Translations under genes and position numbers: made by a program
DNA from: Ichthyobacteriaceae bacterium
GTDB taxonomy: Bacteria > Bacteroidota > Bacteroidia > Flavobacteriales > JADGDT01
Assembly: GCA_016744755.1 (NCBI GenBank)
Contig: JADGDT010000002.1
Coordinates: 12,302-76,301 of the forward strand
Direction: 5' to 3'
DNA: 64,000 nucleotides
Shown here: positions 4,646 through 48,903 of the stretch, in pieces
Layout: the number at the start of each line of letters is the position of its first letter
Position numbering within the stretch: position 1 is the stretch's first letter
Notes under the pieces: model-generated
What the model saw: only the letters and a program-made list of their open reading frames with translations
Databases searched by the model: none
What the model was told of the DNA's origin: nothing

Positions 4646-5781
4646 TGAGTATAGGAACTATAAATTTTGGAAACTCAGGGACTAAGTTCGATAGAGCTTG
4701 GGATAATACTGTTTGGGATGAGAAAGCAAAGGATTATTTAATGCTTGCCAATATCAATACTGAAAATGGAGATATATCTTGGTGGGTTAAGAAGCCAAAC
4801 TCAGAACAGAAAAAGGCGGTAGAAAAATATGCTTCTCAATTTGTTGATGATGATTTGTTGTTATTGGAACTCGAAGCTGAAGCTGTACTTGTGTTACAAA
4901 AACAAGTAGTTACTACAAGTAATAAAATTGACCAGGGAAAAGGTAAAAACAAACATGATTTAATTTATGAAAAGGCAATATCTGAACTCAAATACAATCA
5001 AGAAGATAGCTTTTGTAAAATTATTGAGAATGATTTGAAAACTTCATTATCGGAAGATGAAAAACAGAAGTATGTAGCTATGCTAGTGAATGATACTAGC
5101 AATAAAGTAAAGTTTAAAGCAGGAAATAAGATTCTAAAAGATGAATATAAATTTCAACCAGTTTTTCCTCAATCAATTAAAGTTGCAGAACCAAAGGATT
5201 TAAGTTTAAGAGGAAAAGTTGTTGCTATGGCTAAATATTCAGCCACTAGAAAGGATGAATATCATGATATTTATGGATATGTGTATCATGACATGAGATA
5301 CTTGGTAGCAACAGATGCTCATCAGCTTGTAGTTGTTCATGTAAAAGAAATGAGAGATGATAAATACTATGCTTTTGATGGTGGAATGTCTTTTCCAAAA
5401 GGAACATTTCCAAAATACCGAAGTGTAATACCAAAGAGAATAAAAAACAACAATGTATTAGACTTGAAACAATTGATAGAACAGGTAAAAGGAGTTGAGA
5501 AAGCAAATTCATACTTCAATAAGAAGACTAACATATTACCCGCTGTAAAACTACTATTCAAAGAGAATAGTAAAATGATATTTACAAGTCCACAAATTAC
5601 ACTTAAAGCTTTAATGTCCTTATGGATGACAGGTGTTACAAAGGTTGACATATCAGTTTCAGAAAATCAAAGTATTGTTTTTTATGATGCTGAGAACGAT
5701 AAAACACTAGCAGTTGTAATGGCTTTGATGTCGGGTACAGACACTCTTTTTACACCAATATTAGGAAACGGAATAAACTAA
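4645..5781 (+). CDS. Hypothetical protein with a DnaN (beta sliding clamp)-like C-terminal region
   Basis: The ATG overlaps the helicase stop (TAATG at 4643-4647). The N-terminal ~90 aa end in DDDLLLLELEAEAVLVLQKQ. Later segments 'RYLVATDAHQLVVVH', 'GTFPKYRSVIPK' and 'LAVVMALM' parallel the DnaN signatures VATDGHRLAV, FPDYRRVLPK and YVVMPMRL, which I recalled from E. coli DnaN and did not compute. Confidence 0.5.
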   Translation: MSIGTINFGNSGTKFDRAWDNTVWDEKAKDYLMLANINTENGDISWWVKKPNSEQKKAVEKYASQFVDDDLLLLELEAEAVLVLQKQVVTTSNKIDQGKGKNKHDLIYEKAISELKYNQEDSFCKIIENDLKTSLSEDEKQKYVAMLVNDTSNKVKFKAGNKILKDEYKFQPVFPQSIKVAEPKDLSLRGKVVAMAKYSATRKDEYHDIYGYVYHDMRYLVATDAHQLVVVHVKEMRDDKYYAFDGGMSFPKGTFPKYRSVIPKRIKNNNVLDLKQLIEQVKGVEKANSYFNKKTNILPAVKLLFKENSKMIFTSPQITLKALMSLWMTGVTKVDISVSENQSIVFYDAENDKTLAVVMALMSGTDTLFTPILGNGIN

Positions 5782-5798
5782 CTATAAAAATATATAAG

Positions 5799-6674
5799 AT
5801 GAACTTAACAGTAAATAATTACGAAAGTGCAGTAGAAAATATAGATTTTTCAAAGCTACCAGAAGCTATACGAATGGTTGATGATAAGTGGGGACAATTC
5901 TACAAGTTCTACGGAAAAAGTGATAAGATTACAGAGATGGTTGACAATCATCTAAAAAGTCTAAAACCTTACATCAAGGGAGATAAGAAGGTAATTCTTA
6001 AAAAGACAGTCACTAAACCAAGCAAACCTAAAACGGTTAAAGTTACACCTCATAAAAAGGCAGTAAGCAAAGCTGTGAAATCAAAAATTATAGTAAAGAC
6101 GCAACGCATTGCGTCTCAACGAAAACAAGCTGTCAGAAAGCAAAATGAAGTAGAACTAATGCCTTTGGAAGTACGTTTCATAAAACGATACTTAACACTG
6201 CACGATAAGAGAGTAACAGAAAAACAAGTATCAACTTTCTATAAGGCAATTCAGAAAGCATCGGTTGAAAAAACAATTAGAAAAAGTGGAAAGTATGCTA
6301 ATGAGATAATGAAAATCAGCAAGGATTTATCTCAAACTTATAAAGAGATGAACAACTCATGCAAGTTTGAAATACCAAGTTCGTTACATGTTAAACTTAA
6401 AAATATAACAGATAGTTATGGTGTTACTCCTGCAATTGCATTGATAAAAAGATTCATCAGTTTATATGGTAGAATTACTAAAGAGAAAGCTTCAAGGCTT
6501 CTTAAAAGTATAGAAAACTCAAAGGAAAATGGCAAAGTAAAAAGTTCTGACAATGCTTATAGCAGAGTTGTTGAAATAGAAAATCATCTTGAAAAATATT
6601 TAGATAGTGATAAGTTATTTATAACGGATGTTCAGCTTAACGGATTAAGAGGAATAGCAGGCTTGGGAAAGTAG
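5799..6674 (+). CDS. Lys-rich hypothetical protein (possible DNA-binding)
   Basis: 291-aa ORF with a basic tract KKTVTKPSKPKTVKVTPHKKAVSKAVKSK and two similar helical modules (VRFIKRYLTLHDKRVTEKQVSTFYKAIQKA / IALIKRFISLYGRITKEKASRLLKSIENS). No recognisable family. Confidence 0.4.
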   Translation: MNLTVNNYESAVENIDFSKLPEAIRMVDDKWGQFYKFYGKSDKITEMVDNHLKSLKPYIKGDKKVILKKTVTKPSKPKTVKVTPHKKAVSKAVKSKIIVKTQRIASQRKQAVRKQNEVELMPLEVRFIKRYLTLHDKRVTEKQVSTFYKAIQKASVEKTIRKSGKYANEIMKISKDLSQTYKEMNNSCKFEIPSSLHVKLKNITDSYGVTPAIALIKRFISLYGRITKEKASRLLKSIENSKENGKVKSSDNAYSRVVEIENHLEKYLDSDKLFITDVQLNGLRGIAGLGK

Positions 6675-6712: not shown

Positions 6713-7444
6713 ATGACTAAAACTAATCAAAATAGCTTTGATAATTTTGAACTTAAACCAACTAATCAATCTAAAGGAAGCGAGTTGCTTAATGGTATTT
6801 CAAATTTATACGATGCTATAAATCAGAAACAAGTTAATCCAAAAATGAAAACACAAAACCATTCTGAAAGGTCTATTTTAACTGATAGTAATGTTGTGTC
6901 AACTTCTCAATTGGCTAAAGCAAATTTTGATACAGTTAAGATTGGAGGAAAGTTCGGTCAATTATTAGGAGAGCCATACAATCCATTTTATATGATGATA
7001 TATGGCGATAGGTTTAACGGTAAAAGTTCTGTAGCAATGTTGCTTGCAGGCACATTGTCAAAGAAGAGAAACAAGGTGCTGTATATCTCAAACGAAGAGG
7101 GAGTAAAAGCTTCACTACAAGAAAAATTAGTAAGGTTAAACATTACAAATCCTATTGATTTTGTGGAAGATTATAACTCTGAAATGTTTGCTAGGTATGA
7201 CGCTGTTTTCATGGATAGCGTGCAAACAATAGGGTTAAAGTCAGAAGATTTTAAACTACTAAAAAGGCAATACCCCCAAACATCTTTTGTGATGGTATTT
7301 AAAGCCAATAGAGATGGAACGAGCAAAGGAGGTACAGATTGGGAACATGATGTTGATGCAATTATGCACATAGAAAAAGGCTCGGCTACAATGGAGAAAA
7401 ACCGTTTTCCGAATGGTAGTAATGGAACTATAAAGATTTTTTAA
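6713..7444 (+). CDS. RecA-superfamily P-loop ATPase (RadA/Sak4/KaiC-like)
   Basis: Walker A 'YGDRFNGKSS', Walker B-like 'AVFMDSV', and 'VMVFKANRDGTSKGGTDWEHDVDAIMHIEKG', which resembles the RadA/DnaB-type C-terminal core. Confidence 0.55.
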   Translation: MTKTNQNSFDNFELKPTNQSKGSELLNGISNLYDAINQKQVNPKMKTQNHSERSILTDSNVVSTSQLAKANFDTVKIGGKFGQLLGEPYNPFYMMIYGDRFNGKSSVAMLLAGTLSKKRNKVLYISNEEGVKASLQEKLVRLNITNPIDFVEDYNSEMFARYDAVFMDSVQTIGLKSEDFKLLKRQYPQTSFVMVFKANRDGTSKGGTDWEHDVDAIMHIEKGSATMEKNRFPNGSNGTIKIF

Positions 7445-12183: not shown

Positions 12184-12215
12184 ATGTATGTATGTATGTA
12201 TGTATGTATGTATGC
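12184..12215. repeat. Tetranucleotide microsatellite (ATGT)7 + ATGC
   Basis: Counted by hand: seven perfect ATGT units at 12184-12211, then ATGC. Confidence 0.95.
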
Positions 12216-24847: not shown

Positions 24848-24932
24848 TGTGTGGAGCGATAAATGGGTATAGGTTACAAGGTTAAAAAAAGCAGTTCATA
24901 TTCTATTTTTGGTTCTACTGTTAATTTAATGG

Positions 24933-25145
24933 ATTTTCTAATTTAGAAAAAGCGTCATATTGAACGAAATTCCCTTAATGCAATTAAGGGAGTGTAGCTG
25001 AAATATCTATAGCAACAGTGATAACATAATGTGAGCTATTTTGTAATAGACCTTTCGGCTTCGCTTTGGCTCTAGTTCGGCTACGCTCACCAACCACGCT
25101 CAAGGTGACTATTGTTCCACTAAATTCGTGGTACTAATAAATTAA
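24933..25145 (+). repeat. Dispersed intergenic repeat, copy R2 (longest copy)
   Basis: The left part 'attttctaatttagaa...gaaatatctatagcaacagtgataacataatgtgagctattt' matches the reverse complement of 26559-26716. The right part matches R1. Confidence 0.75.
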
Positions 25146-26238
25146 TAGAACAACTTAATTCCAATATTGATTATCAATTTTTCTGCGATATAAATTTAGG
25201 TTTTAATCGTCTTACTAATCATAAAATAGTAAGTCAAATACGGTGTGAGTTAGCTGAGAATTTAAATATAGCGGAACAAGAGCTATTACTCTCACATCAT
25301 TGGTCTGCATACATTAAATAAGGATAAAATAACTATGGATGCTACAGCTTATGAAAGCGAAGTCAGGTATCCAACAGATCAGAAGTTATTATGGGAATCG
25401 GTTGATTGGAGTTATAGTCAAATGCGCAAAATTTGTAATAATCTTAATATAAAAATACCAAGGACAAAATATTTGAAGTGGAAAAGAAGGAATTTGGATT
25501 ATAGCAAAATGCGTAGAAAGACTAAAAGCAAAAGAAAATCCTTAACAAGAGCCTTACTTCACTTACTAAACAAAATCAATACTGAGCTAGATAAAATAGA
25601 GCTTCAATATAGCTTTGAAATGCCCGAACTCTATGATGTAAGACGAGAAACTATATCTAAAATCTATGAACAACAGAAACACCTTTTTACAACCGGAGAA
25701 TATCCAAAGAACAGAATAGTAAGTATCTCCAAAAATTATCTTCGTCCGATAGTAAGAGGAAATAAAAAAAGTAGAATTTGGTGCAAAAGTAAACAAACTT
25801 CAAATAGATGGAATAAACTTTATCCAGCGTATAAGTTTTGATGCATTTAATGAAGGTATAGAACTTGAAAACACAGTTTATAAGGCTCAACAGTTGACTA
25901 AAATCAAAGTGAAGACTTTAGGGGCAGATGCTATATATGCAAATAATAACAATCGGAATTTTGTCAGTAAGGAAAAGATAAATACAGATTTTAGACCAAA
26001 AGGTAAAAGGCCAAAAGATTATAAAGAACAGCAAAAAAATAGAGCAATAATCTCAAAGGAAAGAGCAACAAGACTAGAAGGGAATTTTGGAAAAGACAAG
26101 GAACATTATCATTTAAAGAAGATAAAAGCAAAAACGCCACAGACCGAAAAATTATGGATTTTCTTTGGAATACATGTTGCTAATGCTTTAGAGATAGGTC
26201 GGAGAATTACAGAAAGTCATTTACAAAAAATAGCATAA
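25146..26238 (+). pseudogene. IS4/IS5-superfamily DDE transposase, 5'-truncated and split into three reading frames
   Basis: The InsH-type N-terminal fragment 'LIEQLNSNIDYQFFCDINLGFNRLTNHKIVSQIRCEL' (25142-25320) lies in one frame. 'MDATAYESEVRYPTDQKLL' (first D) lies in a second frame. '...VEFGAKVNKLQIDG...LGADAIYANNNNRNF...RATRLEGNFGK' (second D and E) lies in a third frame, with the switch at an A7 run near 25764. Confidence 0.75.
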
Positions 26239-26381
26239 AAAAATAATAAATATTATTATCATAGGACAGCTATGTCTTGACGGTAAAAAATATGCGTTCT
26301 GAATCCGGTTTTTAACAAAGTGAATAATAAAATATCCCAAAACTAAAAAACAGCCTTGGGATACTATGTATTTGAGTATAG

Positions 26382-26563
26382 AAATGGCTTACTCCTGAAA
26401 GTGCCTATATAATTGATGCAGAAAAAGATGCTGAGCTAATTACAGGATTCAATAGTGATATTGATAAGGAAATATACCTTGACAAACTCAATAATAATAA
26501 AACACAAGATATTCTTAATTCAGAAAAAGCAAAAGCTGGCGATGTGTTTTTTATTCCAAAATA
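26382..26563 (+). pseudogene. Internal fragment of a second class I mannose-6-phosphate isomerase gene
   Basis: It translates to ...PESAYIIDAEKDAELITGFNSDIDKEIYLDKLNNNKTQDILNSEKAKAGDVFFIPK*. This is colinear with 'WYVIDADEGAELISGFDRTIDKKTYLSKLKNKQITEIINTEKARSGDVFYIPEG' of the intact manA at 60651-61640. Both ends are cut off. Confidence 0.8.
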
Positions 26564-26716
26564 GCTCACATTATATTATCACTATATCTATAGATATTTC
26601 TACCTGCTTCTACAGCTTGCCTCGATCATCGGAGCGGATCAAGGCGGACTCCATTTTCTTTTATTGCACAAAGTAAATTACGCTCAAGATGTCGGATATT
26701 CTAAATTAGAAAATTA
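26559..26716 (-). repeat. Dispersed intergenic repeat, copy R3 (partial, inverted relative to R2)
   Basis: The reverse complement reads 'attttctaatttagaa...gaaatatctatagatatagtgataatataatgtgagctattt'. Confidence 0.75.
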
Positions 26717-26743
26717 ATATAAACGAGAGTATAAATATTAAAA

Positions 26744-26799
26744 CTGCATTACTACATCACCGTTTTACTGCATTACAGCATCACTGCATTACTATATCT
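26744..26799. repeat. Octamer array, 7 units (CTGCATTA / CWRCATCA)
   Basis: Hand-parsed units: ctgcatta ctacatca ccgtttta ctgcatta cagcatca ctgcatta ctatatct. The next unit overlaps the stop codon of the gene at 26804. Confidence 0.85.
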
Positions 26800-26803
26800 C
26801 TAA

Positions 26804-27667
26804 TTACTGATTACCCAAAATAATAGGCAATCCTCCTTCTCCTCCTCCAATAATAATAACTTTTGAGTTTGGAGATTCTGACAATTTAATTGTTGCCTCA
26901 ATACCTTTATCTTGAAGGATCTTATCAGTAAGCGATGAGTTTAATATATCATTCGCTTTAGCTTTACCTTCAGCATCAATCCTAATCTTCTGAGCTTCTT
27001 GAGTAGCTTTCTGTAAACGGAATTTGTACTCCAATGCTTCCTGCTCTTGCTTTAGCTTAGATTCAATAGCATTTTTTATTGTTGGAGGTAAAATTATATC
27101 TCTTACAAGGATTTCGTTTACCGTTACATACTGCTCTTTAAGTATTTCTTTAGTCTCGTGGAAAATTTCATCTTGAATAACATCTCTTTTAGAAGAATAA
27201 ATTTGCTCTGGCTCATAACGACCAATTACACTACGAGTAGCCGAACGCAAAGCTGGTCGTACCACCCTATTCAAATACCCTTGACCAATTTTACGGTGTA
27301 AATTTCCAAGATTTACTTGCTCTGGCATAAACCAAGCCGATAGCTCTACAGAGATATCTAATCCATTCGATGAAAGAACCTTCATTTTTTCACCTGCTTC
27401 TTGTTGTCTAACTTCGTAAACAAACATCTTGTTCCAAGGTGCTAAAAAATGGAATCCCTCTGAGTAAGTATTCTCTACATCAACACCTGATCCGAAAGTA
27501 CGGAATAAAACTCCTGCCTCACCCGAGCCAATAGTCACGGTCATTCGCGACCAAAAAAGTATCAATACTAGCAATCCTGCCCCTATTAACACTATCATAA
27601 ACGAAAACTTGTTACCTAGGTTTAATTGTGGCCCCTGGTTTTCTTGTTGTCCAAAATTTGCACTCAT
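26804..27667 (-). CDS. SPFH/band-7 (prohibitin/HflC-like) membrane protein
   Basis: N-terminal TM segment, then an SPFH core ('GEAGVLFRTFGSGV...') and a C-terminal coiled coil. Confidence 0.8.
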   Translation of the reverse strand: MSANFGQQENQGPQLNLGNKFSFMIVLIGAGLLVLILFWSRMTVTIGSGEAGVLFRTFGSGVDVENTYSEGFHFLAPWNKMFVYEVRQQEAGEKMKVLSSNGLDISVELSAWFMPEQVNLGNLHRKIGQGYLNRVVRPALRSATRSVIGRYEPEQIYSSKRDVIQDEIFHETKEILKEQYVTVNEILVRDIILPPTIKNAIESKLKQEQEALEYKFRLQKATQEAQKIRIDAEGKAKANDILNSSLTDKILQDKGIEATIKLSESPNSKVIIIGGGEGGLPIILGNQ

Positions 27668-27694
27668 ATTTTTGTTTTTTATTTAATTATAATT

Positions 27695-27897
27695 CAATGT
27701 TCAATGTTCAATGTTCAATTTGCAATGTTCAATGTTCAATTTGCAATGTTCAATTTGCAATGTTCAATTAGCAATGTTTAATTTACAATGTTCAATGTTC
27801 AATTAGCAATGTTTAATTTGCAATGTTCAATTAGCAATGTTTAATTTACAATGTTCAATGTTCAATTTGCAATGTTCAATTAGCAATGCTCATTGTA
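27695..27897. repeat. Heptamer array, 29 units (CAATGTT alternating with CAATTWG / TAATTTR)
   Basis: Hand-parsed with no phase break over 203 bp. It starts 27 nt upstream of the start codon at 27667. Confidence 0.95.
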
Positions 27898-27904
27898 GAC
27901 TAAA

Positions 27905-27953
27905 AAATTGTTAACTGCTAATTGATAACTGTAAATTGTTAACTGTAAATTGT
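27905..27953. repeat. Heptamer array, 7 units (AAATTGT / TAACTGY)
   Basis: Units: aaattgt taactgc taattga taactgt aaattgt taactgt aaattgt. A further degenerate unit runs into the stop codon at 27959-27961. Confidence 0.9.
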
Positions 27954-27958
27954 ATTTG

Positions 27959-29761
27959 CTAATATAATCCATTTCTCTTTCTAAGTAACCATTCTACACC
28001 TAAAATTATTGGTAATAAAAACAAAATCCACCACTGCTCTACAATATTTTTATATTGAGTTTTTAAAATAGATGTTCTACTAGCTTTCAATATTAAACTA
28101 TCAATTAAATCTGAATAATTTTCTAAGTTATAAAGTCTTGTTTCTTTACTTGATACAATACTATTTAAAAAATTAATATTCTTATAATTCCCCAAAAGCT
28201 CCATGTTTATATCTTTAACAATAAAAGTAATTGTTTCTATCTTTTTACCATTTACACTAATTTTACTTGTGTAAGTTTTAGATTCAAGATTTCCGATATT
28301 AAGTGAATAGCTACCTTTTTCTTCAATAAAATCAAATATTTGTTTACGCCCATTAATTTCTATCTCTGCCTTTGCCTTTGCATTAACATTAACAGGTTTC
28401 ATTTTAGAATACTCGTTTACAAGTTTTATAACAACATTTTCTGATGAAGAGTAAACATCCTTAAAAACCACGTTATATTTATCTGAATATTTAAGTAGTT
28501 CTATCTCTTTAAGTAATGAATGGAAAAATAGGTTTAAATTGTTATCTCCTCGTTTTGCTTCTTTCAAATTTAATTTCCACAGATTATTTATATCTAAAAA
28601 TATTCTTTTTGATTTTGAATCAACAAAAAATGATTTTAAAAACTTTTTATCTAAAGTTGACTCTACTCTCTCCTGATTATTATCTAATTCTTTGAAAGAT
28701 GAGTTGATTAAAACTACGGGCAGATTTAGATTTTTATTATACGAATCGTTAAAGTCAACAATGAAATCAAATTTTGAAATTTCTTTTTTACTGAAAGCAT
28801 TTTTGGTAACAATAACTTTGTAATTTTTTTGCGAAAATTTCCTTTTTAGCAACGAAACATCAGGATTTAACTGACTGTATTTTATTAGTATAACGCCTTT
28901 ATTTTTTACAAAATTAACCGTTATAAGCTTTTCATCAACTAGAGACTTATCTTGTTTAGAAAATAATTTCACTTTAAAAACATGTGTTCCATCAGAAAAT
29001 GACTTTAATAAAATTGAATGTCTCTTCTTCTGTTTAGCATTAATGTTTGGCAGTATTAACACCCTTTCTGTTAATACATTTTTTTCTTTTTCTGATACTT
29101 CTAATTGTACTTCACCAGAAAAGTTTGAAGACTCAATAAATATCTCTAGCGGAAAACTATTTCCTACAACAACCTCTTTGTTGTAGTTAATTGCAAGAAT
29201 TGAAATTCTAGGAATACTAATAGTATCCCCAACTCCAATTACATCTAAACTATAACTACTATTCTTAGTAAATACAGAAGAACTTCCCTTGTTAATATTT
29301 CCATCACTCACCAAAATAACTCTATCTCCTTGGGTGAGTAAAAAATCTAGACTTTTCTCTAATTCATTAAAATTTGTTCTAGAATTATTAAATTTTAGAG
29401 TATCTATTTCCGAAACACTTTCTCCAAAACCAATATTTTTAATTTGATATTTAGTTGATAGATCCGAATTATTAACATCCTTAAACACTGATTCTAATTC
29501 CTCAAAACTAGTATTCAATAACATAGAAGAAGATTGATCGAAGGCTAAAACTAATTTTGGTTTAACTGTAGTTTTTACTTGTGTTGGCAGCATTAATGTA
29601 CCTATTGCAATAAAAACTATCAGTAGAGATAGAAAACGCAAAAACGCCATGAAAATAAATTTCCACGACGTTTTTATATTTTTTTTATACATAAAAAACG
29701 ACAGTAAACCCGATATCAAAAACGATAGAAATATATACCAAATTGGATAATCGTATGTCAT
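27959..29761 (-). CDS. Membrane protein with a vWA-like MIDAS motif
   Basis: Two N-terminal TM segments and one C-terminal TM segment, plus a 'LVLAFDQSSSM' DxSxS motif. No closer family assignment. Confidence 0.5.
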   Translation of the reverse strand: MTYDYPIWYIFLSFLISGLLSFFMYKKNIKTSWKFIFMAFLRFLSLLIVFIAIGTLMLPTQVKTTVKPKLVLAFDQSSSMLLNTSFEELESVFKDVNNSDLSTKYQIKNIGFGESVSEIDTLKFNNSRTNFNELEKSLDFLLTQGDRVILVSDGNINKGSSSVFTKNSSYSLDVIGVGDTISIPRISILAINYNKEVVVGNSFPLEIFIESSNFSGEVQLEVSEKEKNVLTERVLILPNINAKQKKRHSILLKSFSDGTHVFKVKLFSKQDKSLVDEKLITVNFVKNKGVILIKYSQLNPDVSLLKRKFSQKNYKVIVTKNAFSKKEISKFDFIVDFNDSYNKNLNLPVVLINSSFKELDNNQERVESTLDKKFLKSFFVDSKSKRIFLDINNLWKLNLKEAKRGDNNLNLFFHSLLKEIELLKYSDKYNVVFKDVYSSSENVVIKLVNEYSKMKPVNVNAKAKAEIEINGRKQIFDFIEEKGSYSLNIGNLESKTYTSKISVNGKKIETITFIVKDINMELLGNYKNINFLNSIVSSKETRLYNLENYSDLIDSLILKASRTSILKTQYKNIVEQWWILFLLPIILGVEWLLRKRNGLY

Positions 29762-29812
29762 TTATTTACTGTTTTTCGTTTAGTTGTATTTTGTTTAGCT
29801 GATTTCTATTTA

Positions 29813-29854
29813 CTTTTCACTTTTCACTTTAAACTTTTCACTTTTCACTTTTTT
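29813..29854. repeat. Heptamer array, 6 units (CTTTTCA)
   Basis: Units: cttttca cttttca ctttaaa cttttca cttttca ctttttt. Confidence 0.9.
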
Positions 29855-29860
29855 GTTTAT

Positions 29861-30007
29861 GCCCCCAATTGTAGTGTTAGCCCGGAAATGGGAATACTAA
29901 TGAACAACACGCTAGACTGGCTTTTGCTTTTGGGCAAAAGACCCGACTAGTGTGTTTGTGAATTGTATTGCCATTGAGGACTACAAATGGAAAGTGGGAA
30001 TTGGCAC
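29861..30007. repeat. Imperfect ~145-nt palindrome (structured RNA or MITE-like element)
   Basis: The arms pair by eye: ccaattgtagt/actacaaatgg, aatgggaatac/gtattgccatt, acacgctagactgg/cccgactagtgtgt. The central hairpin is cttttgc-ttttgg-gcaaaag. The element is GC-richer than its flanks. Confidence 0.6.
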
Positions 30008-30015
30008 ATAATATC

Positions 30016-30120
30016 AATTATCAATGTGCAATTATCAATGTGCAATTATCAATGTGCAATTATCAGTTTTCAGTTATCAATGTGCAATTAACAGTTTTCA
30101 ATTATCAGTTATCAATTGAC
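30016..30120. repeat. Heptamer array, 15 units (AATTATC/AATGTGC with AGTTTTC, AGTTATC variants)
   Basis: Hand-parsed over 105 bp with no phase break. The last base is the first base of the fabG stop codon triplet (30120-30122). Confidence 0.95.
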
Positions 30121-30866
30121 TAAGTAAGCATTCCACCATCAACGTTAATTACTTGCCCAGTGATGTAAGTTGACATATCAGAAGCTAAGAATACTGTAAG
30201 ATTTGCAACATCTTCGGCAGTACCTCCTCTTTTTAAAGGAATAGCATTTCGCCATTCTTTAACCATTTTCTCATCAAGGGCATCGGTCATTTCAGTTTCT
30301 ATAAAGCCTGGAGCAATAGCGTTTGAGCGAATATTACGAGAGCCTAGTTCAAGTGCAATAGATTTTGTAAATCCAATGATACCAGCTTTTGAAGCAGAGT
30401 AGTTTGCCTGACCAGCATTTCCTTTAACTCCAACAACAGAACTCATGTTTATTATAGAGCCACTGCGTTGTTTAAGCATTGTACGCTGACAAGCTTTTGT
30501 AAGATTGAAAACAGATTTCAAATTGATTCTAATAACTTCATCCCACTGCTCTTCGCTCATACGCATTAAAAGATTATCGCGTGTAACTCCTGCATTATTA
30601 ACCAATATATCTATTCTTCCGAATTCTGCAACAACATCTTTTGCCAATTGATCGGCAGAAGCAAAGTCAGATGCATCAGAACGAAAACCTTTAATCTTTG
30701 TTCCGTATTGTTCTAATTCCTTCTCCAAAGCTTCTCCTTTTTCTACAGACGAAAGGTAAGTGAAAGCAATATCTGCTCCATTTTTTGCAAAAACTTCTGC
30801 TATCTCTCTACCAATACCTCTTGAAGCACCTGTTATAATTGCTGTTTTCCCTTTTAATAATTGCAT
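30120..30866 (-). CDS. fabG: 3-oxoacyl-[acyl-carrier-protein] reductase
   Basis: 'TGASRGIGREIA', 'NNAG', 'YSASKAG'; 248 aa. Confidence 0.9.
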   Translation of the reverse strand: MQLLKGKTAIITGASRGIGREIAEVFAKNGADIAFTYLSSVEKGEALEKELEQYGTKIKGFRSDASDFASADQLAKDVVAEFGRIDILVNNAGVTRDNLLMRMSEEQWDEVIRINLKSVFNLTKACQRTMLKQRSGSIINMSSVVGVKGNAGQANYSASKAGIIGFTKSIALELGSRNIRSNAIAPGFIETEMTDALDEKMVKEWRNAIPLKRGGTAEDVANLTVFLASDMSTYITGQVINVDGGMLT

Positions 30867-30970
30867 AATAATTTATTTAATACTTGTTTGTTTCTAATTC
30901 AAGTTTGTAAATATATTAAAAGTGAAAAAAGTTAGAAGTATTTATTTGTGTTTTTTGTAAAAGAGTAATT

Positions 30971-31066
30971 CAGTAATACAGTAATACGGTAATACAGTAA
31001 TACAGTAATACAGTGATGCAGTGATGCAGTGATGCAGTGATGCAGTGATGCAGTGATGCAGTGATA
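30971..31066. repeat. Octamer array, 12 units: 5 x CAGTAATA-type then 7 x CAGTGATG-type
   Basis: Hand-parsed units: cagtaata x2, cggtaata, cagtaata x2, cagtgatg x6, cagtgata. Confidence 0.95.
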
Positions 31067-31262
31067 CAGATCTACGAGTATCGCAGGCATTGTAATGTCT
31101 AATATCTTATAAAAAATTGAAATGTAGGTTTTGATTTAATCCGACTCTCGTAGGTCTGTGGCACTACGAGGTCTAACATTATTCAAATATTTTATCTGCG
31201 TTAATCTGCAAAATCTGCGGGCTATTAACTAAATTTGCCCTTCAACATTCAGAATACACAAC

Positions 31263-33377
31263 ATGGATAATCACATAATTTCACTTATGTCTAAATCTCT
31301 AAACATTAGAGATAAACAAGTAAAAAACACCATAGAACTTTTTGATGGAGGAGCTACCATCCCTTTTGTGGCACGATACCGAAAAGAAAGAACAAATAAT
31401 TTAGATGAAGTTGCACTAGCCGATATTCAGAAATTAAATCAGTATTACATAGATTTAGAAAAAAGGAAGAAATACATTATTGATAAAATTGATTCCGAAG
31501 AAAAACTAACTTCCGAATTGAAATCTAAAATTGAAAATACTTTTGATTCTACAGTTCTAGAAGATATTTACCTTCCTTTTAAATCTAAAAGAAAAACTAA
31601 AGCTGTTGTGGCTCGTGATAATGGACTTGAGCCTCTAGCTAAAATAATTATGTCGCAAAAAAGCTACGACTTAAATAGTAGTGCTATAAAATTTGTAATT
31701 AAAAATATAAATAATACTGATGAGGCTCTAGAAGGTGCAAGACATATAATTGCCGAGTGGATAAACGAAAATATTGGAGTTAGGGAATTACTTAGGAGTG
31801 ATTTTGAGAAATCAAGCAAGCTAAAATCAAAGGTAGTAAAAAGCAAAATTGAGGAGGCTGATAAATATTCTGATTATTTTGATTATGAGCAAACAATATC
31901 TAGAATTCCATCTCATAGATTTTTGGCAATTACTAGAGCTGTAAATCTTGGTTTACTGAAAATGTCTGTTGCTGTTGACGAAGAATATATCCTAAATAAA
32001 ATTTACAGAAAATTTATTAGAGGCAATAGCGAATCTGCAGAACAGATAGAATTAGCGATTAACGATGCTTACAAAAGATTGCTGAAACCATCGATAGAAA
32101 ACGAGCTTTTAAACAAAATTAAAGAGAAATCGGATGTTGACGCAATTAAGGTTTTTGAGAAAAATCTTTCTCAACTTCTACTTGCTTCACCTCTTGGACA
32201 GAAAAACATATTGGCAATTGATCCTGGTTTCAAATCGGGATGTAAGGTAGTTTGCATCAATAAAAATGGCGATTTACAGCACAACGAAAACATTTACCCT
32301 CACCCTCCACAAAAACAGCATAAGCTAGCATCGAGTAAGATTTTTAACCTTACAAAAGCATATAAAATAGAAGCTATTGCCATTGGTAACGGAACGGCTG
32401 GTAGAGAAACTGAGAGGTTTGTAAAAGGGCTAAAACTAAAACTTCCAATATTCTTGATTTCAGAAGATGGAGCATCTGTTTACTCGGCATCAAAAATAGC
32501 ACGTGAAGAATTTGGCAACTACGATGTTACCGTTAGGGGAGCCGTTTCTATAGGACGTAGATTGATGGATCCTTTGGCTGAGTTGGTAAAGATTGATGCT
32601 AAATCTATTGGAGTTGGACAATATCAGCACGAGGTAAATCAGACTAAATTACAGGAATCACTAGACAATGCAACTCTATCTGCAGTAAATAAAGTTGGCG
32701 TAAATTTGAACACAGCAGGAAAACATTTATTAGCTTACGTATCGGGCTTAGGTCCTGCACTAGCCCAAAATATTGTTGACTACCGTAGCGAAAATGGTTC
32801 TTTTGGTACTAGAAAAGAATTGCTAAAAGTAGCACGATTAGGAAATAAAGCATTTGAACAAAGTGCGGGTTTCTTGAGAATTAAAAATGCTAAAAATCCC
32901 CTCGACAACAGCGGTATTCATCCCGAGAGTTACGAATTGGTAAACAAAATTGCAAAATCAAAAAAAATAAAAATATCAGATTTAATTGGAAATACAGAAT
33001 TGATTAATTCTATAAATTTCTCTGAATATTCTACAAACGAGATTGGTGATTTGACTCTAACCGACATCAAAAATGAACTTTTAAAACCAGGTTTAGACCC
33101 TCGAAGCATTTTAGCAGAAATTAGTTTCGACGATAATATTAGAACAATAAACGACCTTAACGAAGGAATGGAACTTACAGGTAAGGTAGTAAATATTACC
33201 AATTTCGGAGCATTTGTTGATTTGGGAATTAAAGAATCGGGGTTGATACATCTATCAAATATGGCTGATAGGTACATTAACAATCCTAACGAAATTGTTA
33301 GTTTGCAACAAGCTGTAGATGTTAGAATTATTTCTTTGGAAGTTGATAAAAAGAGAATTGGCTTAAAATTAATTTGA
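31263..33377 (+). CDS. tex: Tex-like transcription accessory protein (S1 RNA-binding domain protein)
   Basis: N-terminal 'GATIPFVARYRKE', a YqgF-like 'ILAIDPGFKSGCK', HhH motifs, and a C-terminal S1 domain 'GKVVNITNFGAFVDLG'. Confidence 0.9.
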   Translation: MDNHIISLMSKSLNIRDKQVKNTIELFDGGATIPFVARYRKERTNNLDEVALADIQKLNQYYIDLEKRKKYIIDKIDSEEKLTSELKSKIENTFDSTVLEDIYLPFKSKRKTKAVVARDNGLEPLAKIIMSQKSYDLNSSAIKFVIKNINNTDEALEGARHIIAEWINENIGVRELLRSDFEKSSKLKSKVVKSKIEEADKYSDYFDYEQTISRIPSHRFLAITRAVNLGLLKMSVAVDEEYILNKIYRKFIRGNSESAEQIELAINDAYKRLLKPSIENELLNKIKEKSDVDAIKVFEKNLSQLLLASPLGQKNILAIDPGFKSGCKVVCINKNGDLQHNENIYPHPPQKQHKLASSKIFNLTKAYKIEAIAIGNGTAGRETERFVKGLKLKLPIFLISEDGASVYSASKIAREEFGNYDVTVRGAVSIGRRLMDPLAELVKIDAKSIGVGQYQHEVNQTKLQESLDNATLSAVNKVGVNLNTAGKHLLAYVSGLGPALAQNIVDYRSENGSFGTRKELLKVARLGNKAFEQSAGFLRIKNAKNPLDNSGIHPESYELVNKIAKSKKIKISDLIGNTELINSINFSEYSTNEIGDLTLTDIKNELLKPGLDPRSILAEISFDDNIRTINDLNEGMELTGKVVNITNFGAFVDLGIKESGLIHLSNMADRYINNPNEIVSLQQAVDVRIISLEVDKKRIGLKLI

Positions 33378-47704: not shown

Positions 47705-48847
47705 ATGTCAACAGAACAAAATAAAAAAAGGAAGCTCAATACAATCGCTGAGGCTATAGAAGATATAAAAGCTGGAAAAGTTATAATTGTAGTTGATGAT
47801 GAGGACAGAGAAAATGAAGGAGATTTTGTAGCCGCAGCTGAAAATATTTCTCCAGAAATAATAAATTTTATGGCTACTCATGGTCGTGGACTTATCTGTA
47901 TGCCATTAACAGAACAAAGAGCGACTGAGCTTGATCTAAACATGATGGTTGGAAATAATACCGATCCTAAAGAAACGGCTTTTACTGTTTCTGTTGATCT
48001 CCTTGGACATGGTGTTACAACAGGTATTTCTGCTGGAGACAGAGCTTTAACTGTACAAGCAATGGTTGATGAAAAGACAAAACCATCAGATCTAAGCCGT
48101 CCAGGGCATATATTTCCTTTAAAAGCTAAAAGTGGTGGTGTATTACGTAGAACAGGTCATACCGAAGCAGCTATAGATTTTGCACGTTTGGCTGGTCTAA
48201 AACCCGCTGGTGTTATTTGCGAAATAATGAATGAAGATGGTTCTATGGCAAGAGTACCTCAACTACTGGATGTAGCCGAAAAATTTGATCTTAAAATGGT
48301 TTCTATCGAAGATTTAGTCGCTTACCGTATGCGCCACGATTCGTTGATAGAGAAAGTTGAAGAGTACGATTTAAAAACTCTTTTAGGTGATTTCCACCTT
48401 AGAGCTTACCGCCAAACAAACAATGGACAGGTACACATTGCACTTACAAAAGGTACTTGGGAATTAGGAGATACGGTAACTGTTAGAGTTAACCCTAGCT
48501 CAATCAACAACGATTTACTTGGTTACCTTACCAACGATTGTGAATCGCAACTAAATAAGGTTCTTAATCTTATAAATTCTGAGGAAAAATCAGCTATTGT
48601 TTTTGTTAATCAAGACAATAAACCTAATAACTTACTCTCTAGAATTTCTGAACTTAAGAGTATTCAGGGAAATGGAGAAATGGGTGCTCCAAGTTTAAAA
48701 TTCGATGATAAAGATTATGGAATTGGTGCCCAAATTTTACACGATTTAGATATAAATAAAATTAAACTTATTTCTAATAATATTCCTCTAAAACGTGTTG
48801 GTATGATTGGGTACGGATTGGAAATTGTTGAAAATATTGAATACTAG
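47705..48847 (+). CDS. ribBA: 3,4-dihydroxy-2-butanone-4-phosphate synthase with a degenerate GTP cyclohydrolase II-like C-terminal domain
   Basis: 'DDEDRENEGDFV', 'RTGHTEAA'. The C-terminal half aligns to RibA but lacks most of the zinc cysteines. Confidence 0.85.
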   Translation: MSTEQNKKRKLNTIAEAIEDIKAGKVIIVVDDEDRENEGDFVAAAENISPEIINFMATHGRGLICMPLTEQRATELDLNMMVGNNTDPKETAFTVSVDLLGHGVTTGISAGDRALTVQAMVDEKTKPSDLSRPGHIFPLKAKSGGVLRRTGHTEAAIDFARLAGLKPAGVICEIMNEDGSMARVPQLLDVAEKFDLKMVSIEDLVAYRMRHDSLIEKVEEYDLKTLLGDFHLRAYRQTNNGQVHIALTKGTWELGDTVTVRVNPSSINNDLLGYLTNDCESQLNKVLNLINSEEKSAIVFVNQDNKPNNLLSRISELKSIQGNGEMGAPSLKFDDKDYGIGAQILHDLDINKIKLISNNIPLKRVGMIGYGLEIVENIEY

Positions 48848-48895
48848 TTGCAGGTTGCAGGTTGCAGGTTGCAGGTTGCAGGTTGCAGGTTGCAG
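48847..48895. repeat. Perfect heptamer array (GTTGCAG)7
   Basis: 49 bp counted by hand. The first G is the last base of the ribBA TAG stop codon. Confidence 0.98.
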
Positions 48896-48903
48896 GCAAA
48901 ATT

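Follow-up and report, generated by a model that had tools for sequence, protein, structure and literature searches.

A heptamer-repeat spacer upstream of a prohibitin-like gene in an Ichthyobacteriaceae bacterium, probably a recent expansion within a transcribed operon

The 7-bp repeats upstream of hmw1A and hmw2A in Haemophilus influenzae are phase-variable, and short tandemly repeated repetitive (STRR) heptamers are found in heterocystous cyanobacteria. Intergenic heptamer direct repeats have been described for Beggiatoaceae, cyanobacteria and five Bacteroidetes; long arrays of mixed heptamers are present in Gramella forsetii and Aequorivita sublithincola but not in their closest relatives, which have short spacers without repeats (MacGregor, 2015, PMC4679880). 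Forward repeats were located just upstream of start codons and one reversed set just past a stop codon, and S1, cold-shock or CsrA-like proteins were suggested as repeat binders (PMC4679880). According to the citations in that paper, heptanucleotides are the most frequent type among the long simple-sequence repeats of prokaryotes, perhaps owing to polymerase slippage (Mrazek et al., 2007), and the AGAT repeats in the 5′ untranslated region of Moraxella catarrhalis uspA2 are leader repeats. Here we analysed a spacer of this kind in an Ichthyobacteriaceae bacterium (assembly GCA_016744755.1). It is located in a window of 64,000 nucleotides (nt) from contig JADGDT010000002.1 (positions 12,302 to 76,301), where a 291-nt stop-to-start gap (27668-27958) separates the gene for a hypothetical membrane-anchored protein of 600 amino acids (aa) from the gene for a prohibitin-like SPFH/Band_7 protein. 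Both flanking genes and the spacer read on the minus strand, and coordinates given without a contig are window positions.

The spacer is a further member of the already published, functionally unexplained class of heptamer repeats. As in the arrays described by MacGregor, it is made of tandem 7-nt intergenic units, often mixed, which lie near starts (forward) or after stops, and in both cases gene order is the same in the closest relatives, where the gaps are short and free of repeats. The units are different, TAACTGA there and ATTGAAC with its variants here. The TAACTGA direct repeat itself, which is forward and a few nt from the start, was therefore rejected as a description of the spacer, the units of which are of the ATTGAAC type. 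Two units of the stop-proximal array, ACAGTTA and GCAGTTA, are one mismatch away from the reverse complement of TAACTGA, and contig C63 of the genome carries a TAACTGA-type array (2210-2417), in reverse orientation and directly past a stop codon. The spacer also has the features of long simple-sequence repeats: head-to-tail units beyond chance, an intergenic location among many repeat families and turnover at the orthologous spacer. Like STRR sequences, the heptamer arrays of this genome are numerous, dispersed between genes and composed of several unit families per genome, but STRR belong to another phylum and the units here are AT-rich, and the likeness is at the level of the general class only. 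The hmw and uspA2 repeats resemble the spacer in that short tandem units lie between the region upstream of a gene and its start codon; in contrast to them, the spacer has no promoter motif, contains interrupted units, is not linked to a surface antigen and is part of a genome-wide phenomenon. The spacer that the first-pass annotation of this DNA had singled out belongs to a genome-wide repeat class and is not a feature peculiar to the SPFH gene.

That annotation had described the spacer between positions 27959 and 27667 as built from heptamers. Both flanking coordinates and the length of 291 nt are correct according to the open reading frames (ORFs), and the heptamer composition was confirmed by Tandem Repeats Finder (TRF), by parsing into a single register and by a lag-7 autocorrelation beyond that of shuffled sequences. 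Read on the gene strand, the entire spacer forms one heptamer register of 42 slots (Table 1). Its autocorrelation is 0.655 at lag 7 and 0.726 at lag 14, compared to a maximum of 0.433 at any lag in 1000 dinucleotide shuffles. TRF reports one array at 27693-27896 (204 nt, 29 heptamers) with periods of 14, 35 and 63, the last with 91% match and a score of 333, and a second array at 27905-27953 (49 nt, seven heptamers) with a period of 14; the scores across both arrays range from 194 to 333. In the start-proximal array (array 1) the unit ATTGAAC was counted 13 times, ATTGCAA five times, ATTGCTA four times, ATTAAAC three times, ATTGTAA twice and ATTGAAT once. Upstream of these ATTGAAC-type units lie units of the ATTTACA/GTTAACA type, which form array 2 and begin 1 nt past the stop codon of the 600-aa gene. 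Since the gap between the two arrays is exactly 21 nt, they are in phase. The junction carries the sole sense-strand ATG of the spacer, and the sole ORF inside the spacer is a 51-aa antisense read-through of the repeats.

The longest exact repeat inside the spacer comprises 53 nt, with its two copies offset by 63 nt; a block of nine units was therefore duplicated recently. The higher-order structure of array 1 consists chiefly of this 63-nt block, and a 14-nt alternation is present too; for a periodicity of 21 nt nothing was found in array 1 beyond multiples of 7. Duplication of 14- and 21-nt blocks had been proposed, and the 14-nt blocks are indeed seen, but the other block is 63 nt long (53-nt exact repeat, TRF period 63). 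Similarly, the short non-repeat gap before the start codon exists but measures 24-25 nt instead of 27 nt. The longest perfect run in the array is three heptamers, or two units of 14 nt. All copy numbers were taken from a draft assembly of 242 contigs with 13 repeat loci at contig ends and are approximate until checked against reads. The name "vWA" for the upstream gene had to be dropped: the 600-aa protein matches no Pfam or NCBIfam domain, even at E values up to 5, and its homologues in UniRef are "hypothetical", with one distant homologue alone named VWA. The similarity of the SPFH protein to HflK/HflC is weak.

Table 1. Features of the spacer and its flanking genes (window positions) and locations of the PF05635 matches in the genome (contig:positions).
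Feature	Position	Strand	Basis
Upstream gene, 600-aa hypothetical membrane-anchored protein	27959..29761	-	ORF; stop TAG 27961-27959
Downstream gene, SPFH/Band_7 (prohibitin-like), 287 aa	26804..27667	-	Pfam PF01145, E 5e-31
Array 2, stop-proximal, ~7 heptamers, ACAATTT / ACAGTTA alternating (+ TCAATTA, GCAGTTA)	27905..27957	-	TRF + register parse
Junction, 21 nt, three non-repeat heptamer slots ATTTTTT AGTCTAC AATGAGC	27888..27908	-	register parse
Array 1, start-proximal, 28 heptamers of ATTGAAC + variants	27692..27887	-	register parse; TRF 27693-27896
Block duplication in array 1, 63 nt (9 units), two exact 53-nt copies, offset 63	27752..27867	-	
Non-repeat A-rich leader, 24 nt, read as translation initiation region of the SPFH gene	27668..27691	-	
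PF05635 matches	C140:1494-1811, C84:9019-9327, C88:11714-12028, C57:5503-5817, C44:5184-5492, C121:10850-11137, C4:12914-13153		

In the congeners G002, G003 and G004, with SPFH proteins 85-90% identical to the one studied here, the 600-aa gene still immediately precedes the SPFH gene. The orthologous spacers are only 41-46 nt long there and contain no array. Because three congeners keep the gene pair with such short array-free spacers, the array appears to be a recent, lineage-specific expansion. The short spacers of the congeners already contain proto-units (in G002: ACAATAA ACAATTA AAC TAATT), which would make growth of the array in place plausible, with the caution that such sequence is of low complexity. 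The gene order is conserved more widely: at about 48 loci of Flavobacteriaceae, a Band_7/SPFH gene directly follows a homologue of the 600-aa gene on the same strand, and the nearest named relatives by SPFH protein are Flavobacteriaceae and other Bacteroidota. The SPFH pair, probably as a triplet together with the gene for a short-chain dehydrogenase (SDR), behaves operon-like, and its internal spacers are inflated here. A search of metagenome contigs with exact 30-nt flanks of the spacer gave no match, the protein cluster contained this one member only, and no second assembly of the species was found.

We consider it probable that the spacer is a recent expansion, by slippage or unequal exchange, of a transcribed operon spacer, which would be tolerated since the sense RNA is rich in A and in stops, poor in AUG and unstructured, and since the SPFH gene has kept its own initiation region intact. 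The setting would be the internal stop-to-start spacer of a conserved string of SDR, 600-aa protein and SPFH genes. An ancestral spacer of about 45 nt with ACAATNA / ATTAAAC proto-units would have grown to 291 nt through slipped-strand or unequal-exchange duplication of single units, of 14-nt pairs and of one 63-nt block. The array would most likely be transcribed within a polycistronic mRNA or a long leader, and the SPFH gene would be translated from its intact 24-nt A-rich initiation region, which has no Shine-Dalgarno sequence. Tolerance of the repeat and fixation of its strand would then result from a sense RNA that is A-rich and nearly free of AUG, has stops in three frames and is no more structured than shuffled sequence. 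The likely effect of the array would be on gene spacing and translational uncoupling, not that of a switch.

The genome belongs to the Flavobacteriales, an order that includes very small genomes of endosymbiont size, and comprises 3.64 Mb at 32% GC in its 242 contigs. Whole-genome TRF analysis yielded 444 merged tandem-repeat loci, 326 of which are outside long ORFs. Period 7 is the commonest (65 loci), followed by 13, 8 (41 loci), 14, 11 and 16, and dozens of different units are involved. Altogether, 216 of 2570 spacers (~8%) carry arrays. Thirteen intergenic regions of at least 150 nt consist of array to at least 70%, 12 of them between co-directional genes; the SPFH spacer is the fourth longest of the 13. 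The density of tandem repeats is 122 loci per Mb, compared to 40-91 in samples of the three congeners and 87 in 928 kb of other Bacteroidota loci, and many of the repeat loci of other Bacteroidota likewise have a period of 7 or 8. The idea of an unusually repeat-rich genome was therefore rejected, the density being only about 1.4 times that of other Bacteroidota. Two uninterrupted tracts in the window, a perfect (GTTGCAG)x7 at 48847-48896, which begins at the last stop-codon base of the ORF ending at 48847, and a perfect (ATGT)x7.8 tetranucleotide tract at 12184-12214, are more prone to slippage than the array of the SPFH spacer.

The first-pass annotation had reasoned that a promoter of the SPFH gene must lie within the repeats or else the two genes are co-transcribed across them. 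This logic is sound, and the evidence favours co-transcription. Promoters of Bacteroidota use a TAnnTTTG box near -7. With up to one mismatch allowed, we found none on the spacer's sense strand; the closest candidates are located at least 299 nt upstream, from the last bases of the 600-aa ORF onward. Genes with their own promoter show this box 5-50 nt before the ATG, as for example tex (box at 31230), and Bacteroidales orthologues of the SPFH gene have it about 20 nt upstream of the ATG. A scan for sigma-70-type promoters did not exceed shuffled sequences and was empty within the spacer, where a terminator-like hairpin was not found either. Since the spacer has neither a -7 box nor a terminator, the congener spacers are short and the pair is adjacent in about 48 loci, co-transcription of the 600-aa and SPFH genes through the repeats would be likelier than a promoter carried by the repeats. 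The genome-wide distribution points in the same direction. Arrays with period 7 or 8 (and multiples) were found in 129 co-directional spacers (82%), 15 divergent and 14 convergent ones; the expectation for co-directional spacers is 61% by length and 72% by number. Among co-directional spacers of at least 150 nt, -7 boxes are present in 26% of the array-bearing ones vs 45% of the others (Fisher p=0.004), a difference that arises in part from repeats displacing unique sequence. The preference of arrays for co-directional spacers that are poor in -7 boxes favours transcription through the array.

These data also bear on whether the spacer is a contingency locus, with the array in or beside the SPFH promoter and slippage switching or grading expression. 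A long array immediately upstream of a gene, a recent 63-nt duplication as a sign of a dynamic tract, and a TTG in every unit, by which a -33-like element is always available, would be in line with this. However, no -7 box is found within one mismatch, the interrupting variants damp slippage (a perfect run has three units at most), and SPFH is a housekeeping-type protein of a free-living-type flavobacterium, not a surface antigen. In addition, hundreds of similar arrays lie beside unrelated genes, with the preference for promoter-poor co-directional spacers described above. We therefore regard a contingency locus as very improbable.

Arrays were also seen next to other promoters. In gut and rumen Bacteroidales metagenome-assembled genomes (MAGs; L001-L030, ~5770-5900 and 6790-6990) the orthologous SPFH gene has a canonical TAnnTTTG promoter of its own, which is flanked by short heptamer arrays, with ATTGAAA/GTTGAAA past the stop of the upstream gene and AATTCCT/TAACTCC on the downstream side; among closely related MAGs, some possess these arrays and others lack them. 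In the window, the divergent SDR/tex spacer (30957-31069) contains two abutting octamer arrays on the minus strand, CATCACTG x7 followed by TATTACTG x6, which lie upstream of a near-canonical -7 box (TATATTTA) of the SDR gene.

At the RNA level, the minimum free energy of the sense-strand fold of the spacer is -49.5 kcal/mol vs a shuffle mean of -49.0 (z=-0.12), and the antisense strand gives z=-0.74. A structured RNA or hairpin cassette at the spacer was rejected, as the folds of both strands are no stabler than those of shuffles. Rfam covariance models run over 26500-31400 gave no match at E<=1. The sense strand of the spacer contains 44% A, has a single ATG vs 17 on the antisense strand, and has stop codons in each of its three frames. 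In the 24-nt leader, A occupies positions -3, -6, -11, -12 and -13, and the short spacers of the congeners end in an A-run that resembles it. In Flavobacterium johnsoniae, A at -3, -6, -12 and -13 favours initiation according to ribosome profiling and reporter data, and initiation regions of Bacteroidetes are A-rich and of low structure, with AUG avoided near start codons (PMC6847099).

The same bias is visible across the genome. Arrays of period 7 or 8 (and multiples) in co-directional spacers have more A than T on the sense strand in a ratio of 95:32 (p=2e-8), and the mean AT skew is 0.167 in array-bearing co-directional spacers vs 0.042 in array-free ones. The excess of A over T sits in start-proximal arrays (59:9), not in stop-proximal arrays (19:15), and the ATG density of start-proximal arrays is 10.2 per kb on the sense strand vs 22.4 per kb on the antisense strand. 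ATTGAAC arrays occur at seven loci in the genome; all of them are sense-oriented and end 0-32 nt before an ATG, and at several of these loci the array itself constitutes the -1 to -20 region. Octamer arrays of AAACAATT are sense-oriented in a ratio of 16:3 and end mostly 1-8 nt from the start codon. These strand-specific properties suggest constraints at the RNA level. The bias suggests either passive filtering, in which only those orientations survive that are compatible with a leader, or a leader that is active in its own right.

A role of the DNA itself, through curvature, nucleoid organisation or an array for a DNA-binding protein, is strand-symmetric and does not predict a strong sense-strand bias; moreover, the 7-bp period is out of helix phase. 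Structural roles for repeats of 5-11 nt were reportedly discussed by Mrazek et al. An assembly artefact could be suspected on the grounds of the 242-contig draft and the 13 repeat loci touching contig ends, but the variant units speak against simple mis-assembly, as does the exact 53-nt duplicate inside a contig of 82 kb. Both possibilities, taken as one, are highly improbable.

The active variant of an RNA-level explanation is a functional leader, in which (AUUGAAC)n RNA would be a platform for S1, a cold-shock protein or a similar protein that tunes downstream translation in the Shine-Dalgarno-less Bacteroidota. The orientation of all seven ATTGAAC arrays and their position next to the ATG, the bias of the AAACAATT arrays and of the start-proximal arrays, and the unstructured tract fit this proposal, and both the hypothesis and the candidate proteins had already been put forward for TAACTGA repeats (PMC4679880). 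Nevertheless, in three congeners the same gene is translated from an array-free ~45-nt spacer, the array is set off from the ATG by an ordinary A-rich leader of 24 nt, and the units vary widely across loci and species. Passive selection against AUG and structure near starts predicts the same bias. A functional leader thus seems unlikely to us.

Several observations weigh against the preferred reading of a tolerated slippage expansion. A two-part design, in which CAGTTAA/CAATTAA-type units follow the stop codon and the start is preceded by ATTGAAC/ATTGCTA/ATTGCAA/ATTGATA units, is found at no fewer than seven loci of the genome, including contigs C163, C229, C242, C8, C44 and C157, and (ATTGAAC)3 is missing from all four congeners searched and, within the order, from all but one of 300 genomes. 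The recurrent design is not explained by pure neutral slippage and hints at copying between loci or at a sequence-specific factor. Furthermore, the sense-strand bias may mean a positive RNA function and not mere tolerance, the array may contain a degenerate promoter or one for an alternative sigma factor, and the genome-wide statistics rest on crude gene calls (longest ORFs). Metagenome contigs with (ATTGAAC)4 (at least 120) showed 30 arrays downstream-sense vs 20, with 27 in crude ORFs; these contigs span 29-66% GC, a range in which the crude ORF caller is unreliable, and the weak bias was not counted as support.

The CAGTTAA/CAATTAA vocabulary past stop codons was also found at C163, C229, C99 and C44 and in the congener G003. 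The 262-nt spacer C163:2189-2450 consists of ~17 CAGTTAA/CAATTAA units, a short junction and ~15 ATTGAAC/ATTGCTA units, followed by AAAAAGA and the ATG. At the stop-to-start spacer on C99 (14512-14602), the orthologous spacers of this genome (G000), G003 (L119:3440-3640) and G004 (L107:5150-5720) all carry arrays. CAATTAT/CAGTTAA and AACCAGT/AACAAGC units are common to G000 and G003, with the latter type reaching the ATG and with different copy numbers; the spacer in G004 has 420 nt, in which AAAGATA units are interleaved with a repeated GC-rich hairpin. As G000 and G003 have these arrays in common at unequal copy number, arrays can persist and change length between species.

A profile search of the genome with PF05635 (23S_rRNA_IVP, the family of 23S rRNA intervening-sequence proteins) gave seven matches (L253-L259; Table 1), one of which contains in-frame stops. 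The majority are small genes squeezed in between co-directional neighbours, and those on C140, C84, C88, C121 and C44 are flanked by arrays of the same vocabulary; on C84 the arms are inverted, with CAGTAATA-type units upstream and TATTACTG-type units downstream. Arrays are present in five of the 14 spacers flanking PF05635 genes, compared to ~8% of all spacers. These repeat-armed cassettes and the SPFH spacer have a heptamer/octamer vocabulary in common, and the arrays may have a common origin. The SPFH spacer, in contrast, contains no PF05635 match (all seven are on other contigs) and no inverted repeat arms or long hairpin (z=-0.12). Since it has neither a PF05635 ORF nor a hairpin, it is not an IVP cassette.

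It could still be a copy, devoid of the gene, of a word-array cassette that is dispersed and possibly mobile and that would spread from one stop-start gap to another by copying; full copies would carry the small PF05635 four-helix-bundle gene between their repeat arms. This would account for the array-flanked PF05635 genes, for the recurrence of the bipartite design on C163, C229, C242, C8 and C44, and for the near confinement of ATTGAAC arrays to this genome within the order. The missing IVP ORF and the direct instead of inverted arrays, without a pairing signal, do not fit. No target-site duplication and no conserved non-repeat core were found across the loci, the junctions of which differ, and the proto-units in the short spacers of the congeners fit growth in place. 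We judge such a copy to be slightly less likely than the functional leader discussed above. Of about the same low likelihood as that leader is a broader proposal, in which the arrays would not be products of random slippage but modules of a genome-wide, strand-specific system that are copied into operon stop-to-start gaps and have their vocabulary in common with the arms of IVP cassettes. Stop-proximal CAGTTAA/CAATTAA units together with start-proximal ATTGAAC, AAACAATT and AACCAGT units, which are A-rich and free of AUG, would then form a ribosome-loading leader, and their copy number would set how strongly the genes of an operon are translated relative to each other.

The neighbourhood of the SPFH gene contains further repeats. 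The next spacer upstream, between the SDR gene and the 600-aa gene (29762-30119), measures 358 nt here but 89 nt in G004 and only 31 nt in G003. An array of 15 ATTGATA/ATTGCAC units follows the stop codon, a GTGAAAA array precedes the start, and the spacer also includes a palindrome of ~145 nt that is richer in GC; the 89-nt spacer of G004 has its own short 14-nt repeats. On the other side, a fragment of a DDE transposase (PF13586, 25894-26238) lies in the ~2 kb 3′ of the SPFH gene (24848-26803), together with an ORF of 168 aa and an array of octamers (26743-26793). In G003 a DEAD-box helicase gene lies only ~260 nt downstream of the SPFH gene, in convergent orientation.

What this locus adds to the published class of heptamer repeats is the genome-wide orientation statistics, with an A-rich and AUG-poor sense strand, and the operon context. 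The A-rich, AUG-poor sense bias near starts ties the repeats to the Shine-Dalgarno-less initiation rules of Bacteroidota, and because of this link to the initiation rules the explanations are narrowed to those acting at the RNA level. In addition, the locus provides a natural before/after pair, in which the same genes are separated by ~45 nt in three sister species and by 291 nt of repeats here. This contrast is a simple test system for the effects of arrays on transcription, translational coupling and protein ratios.

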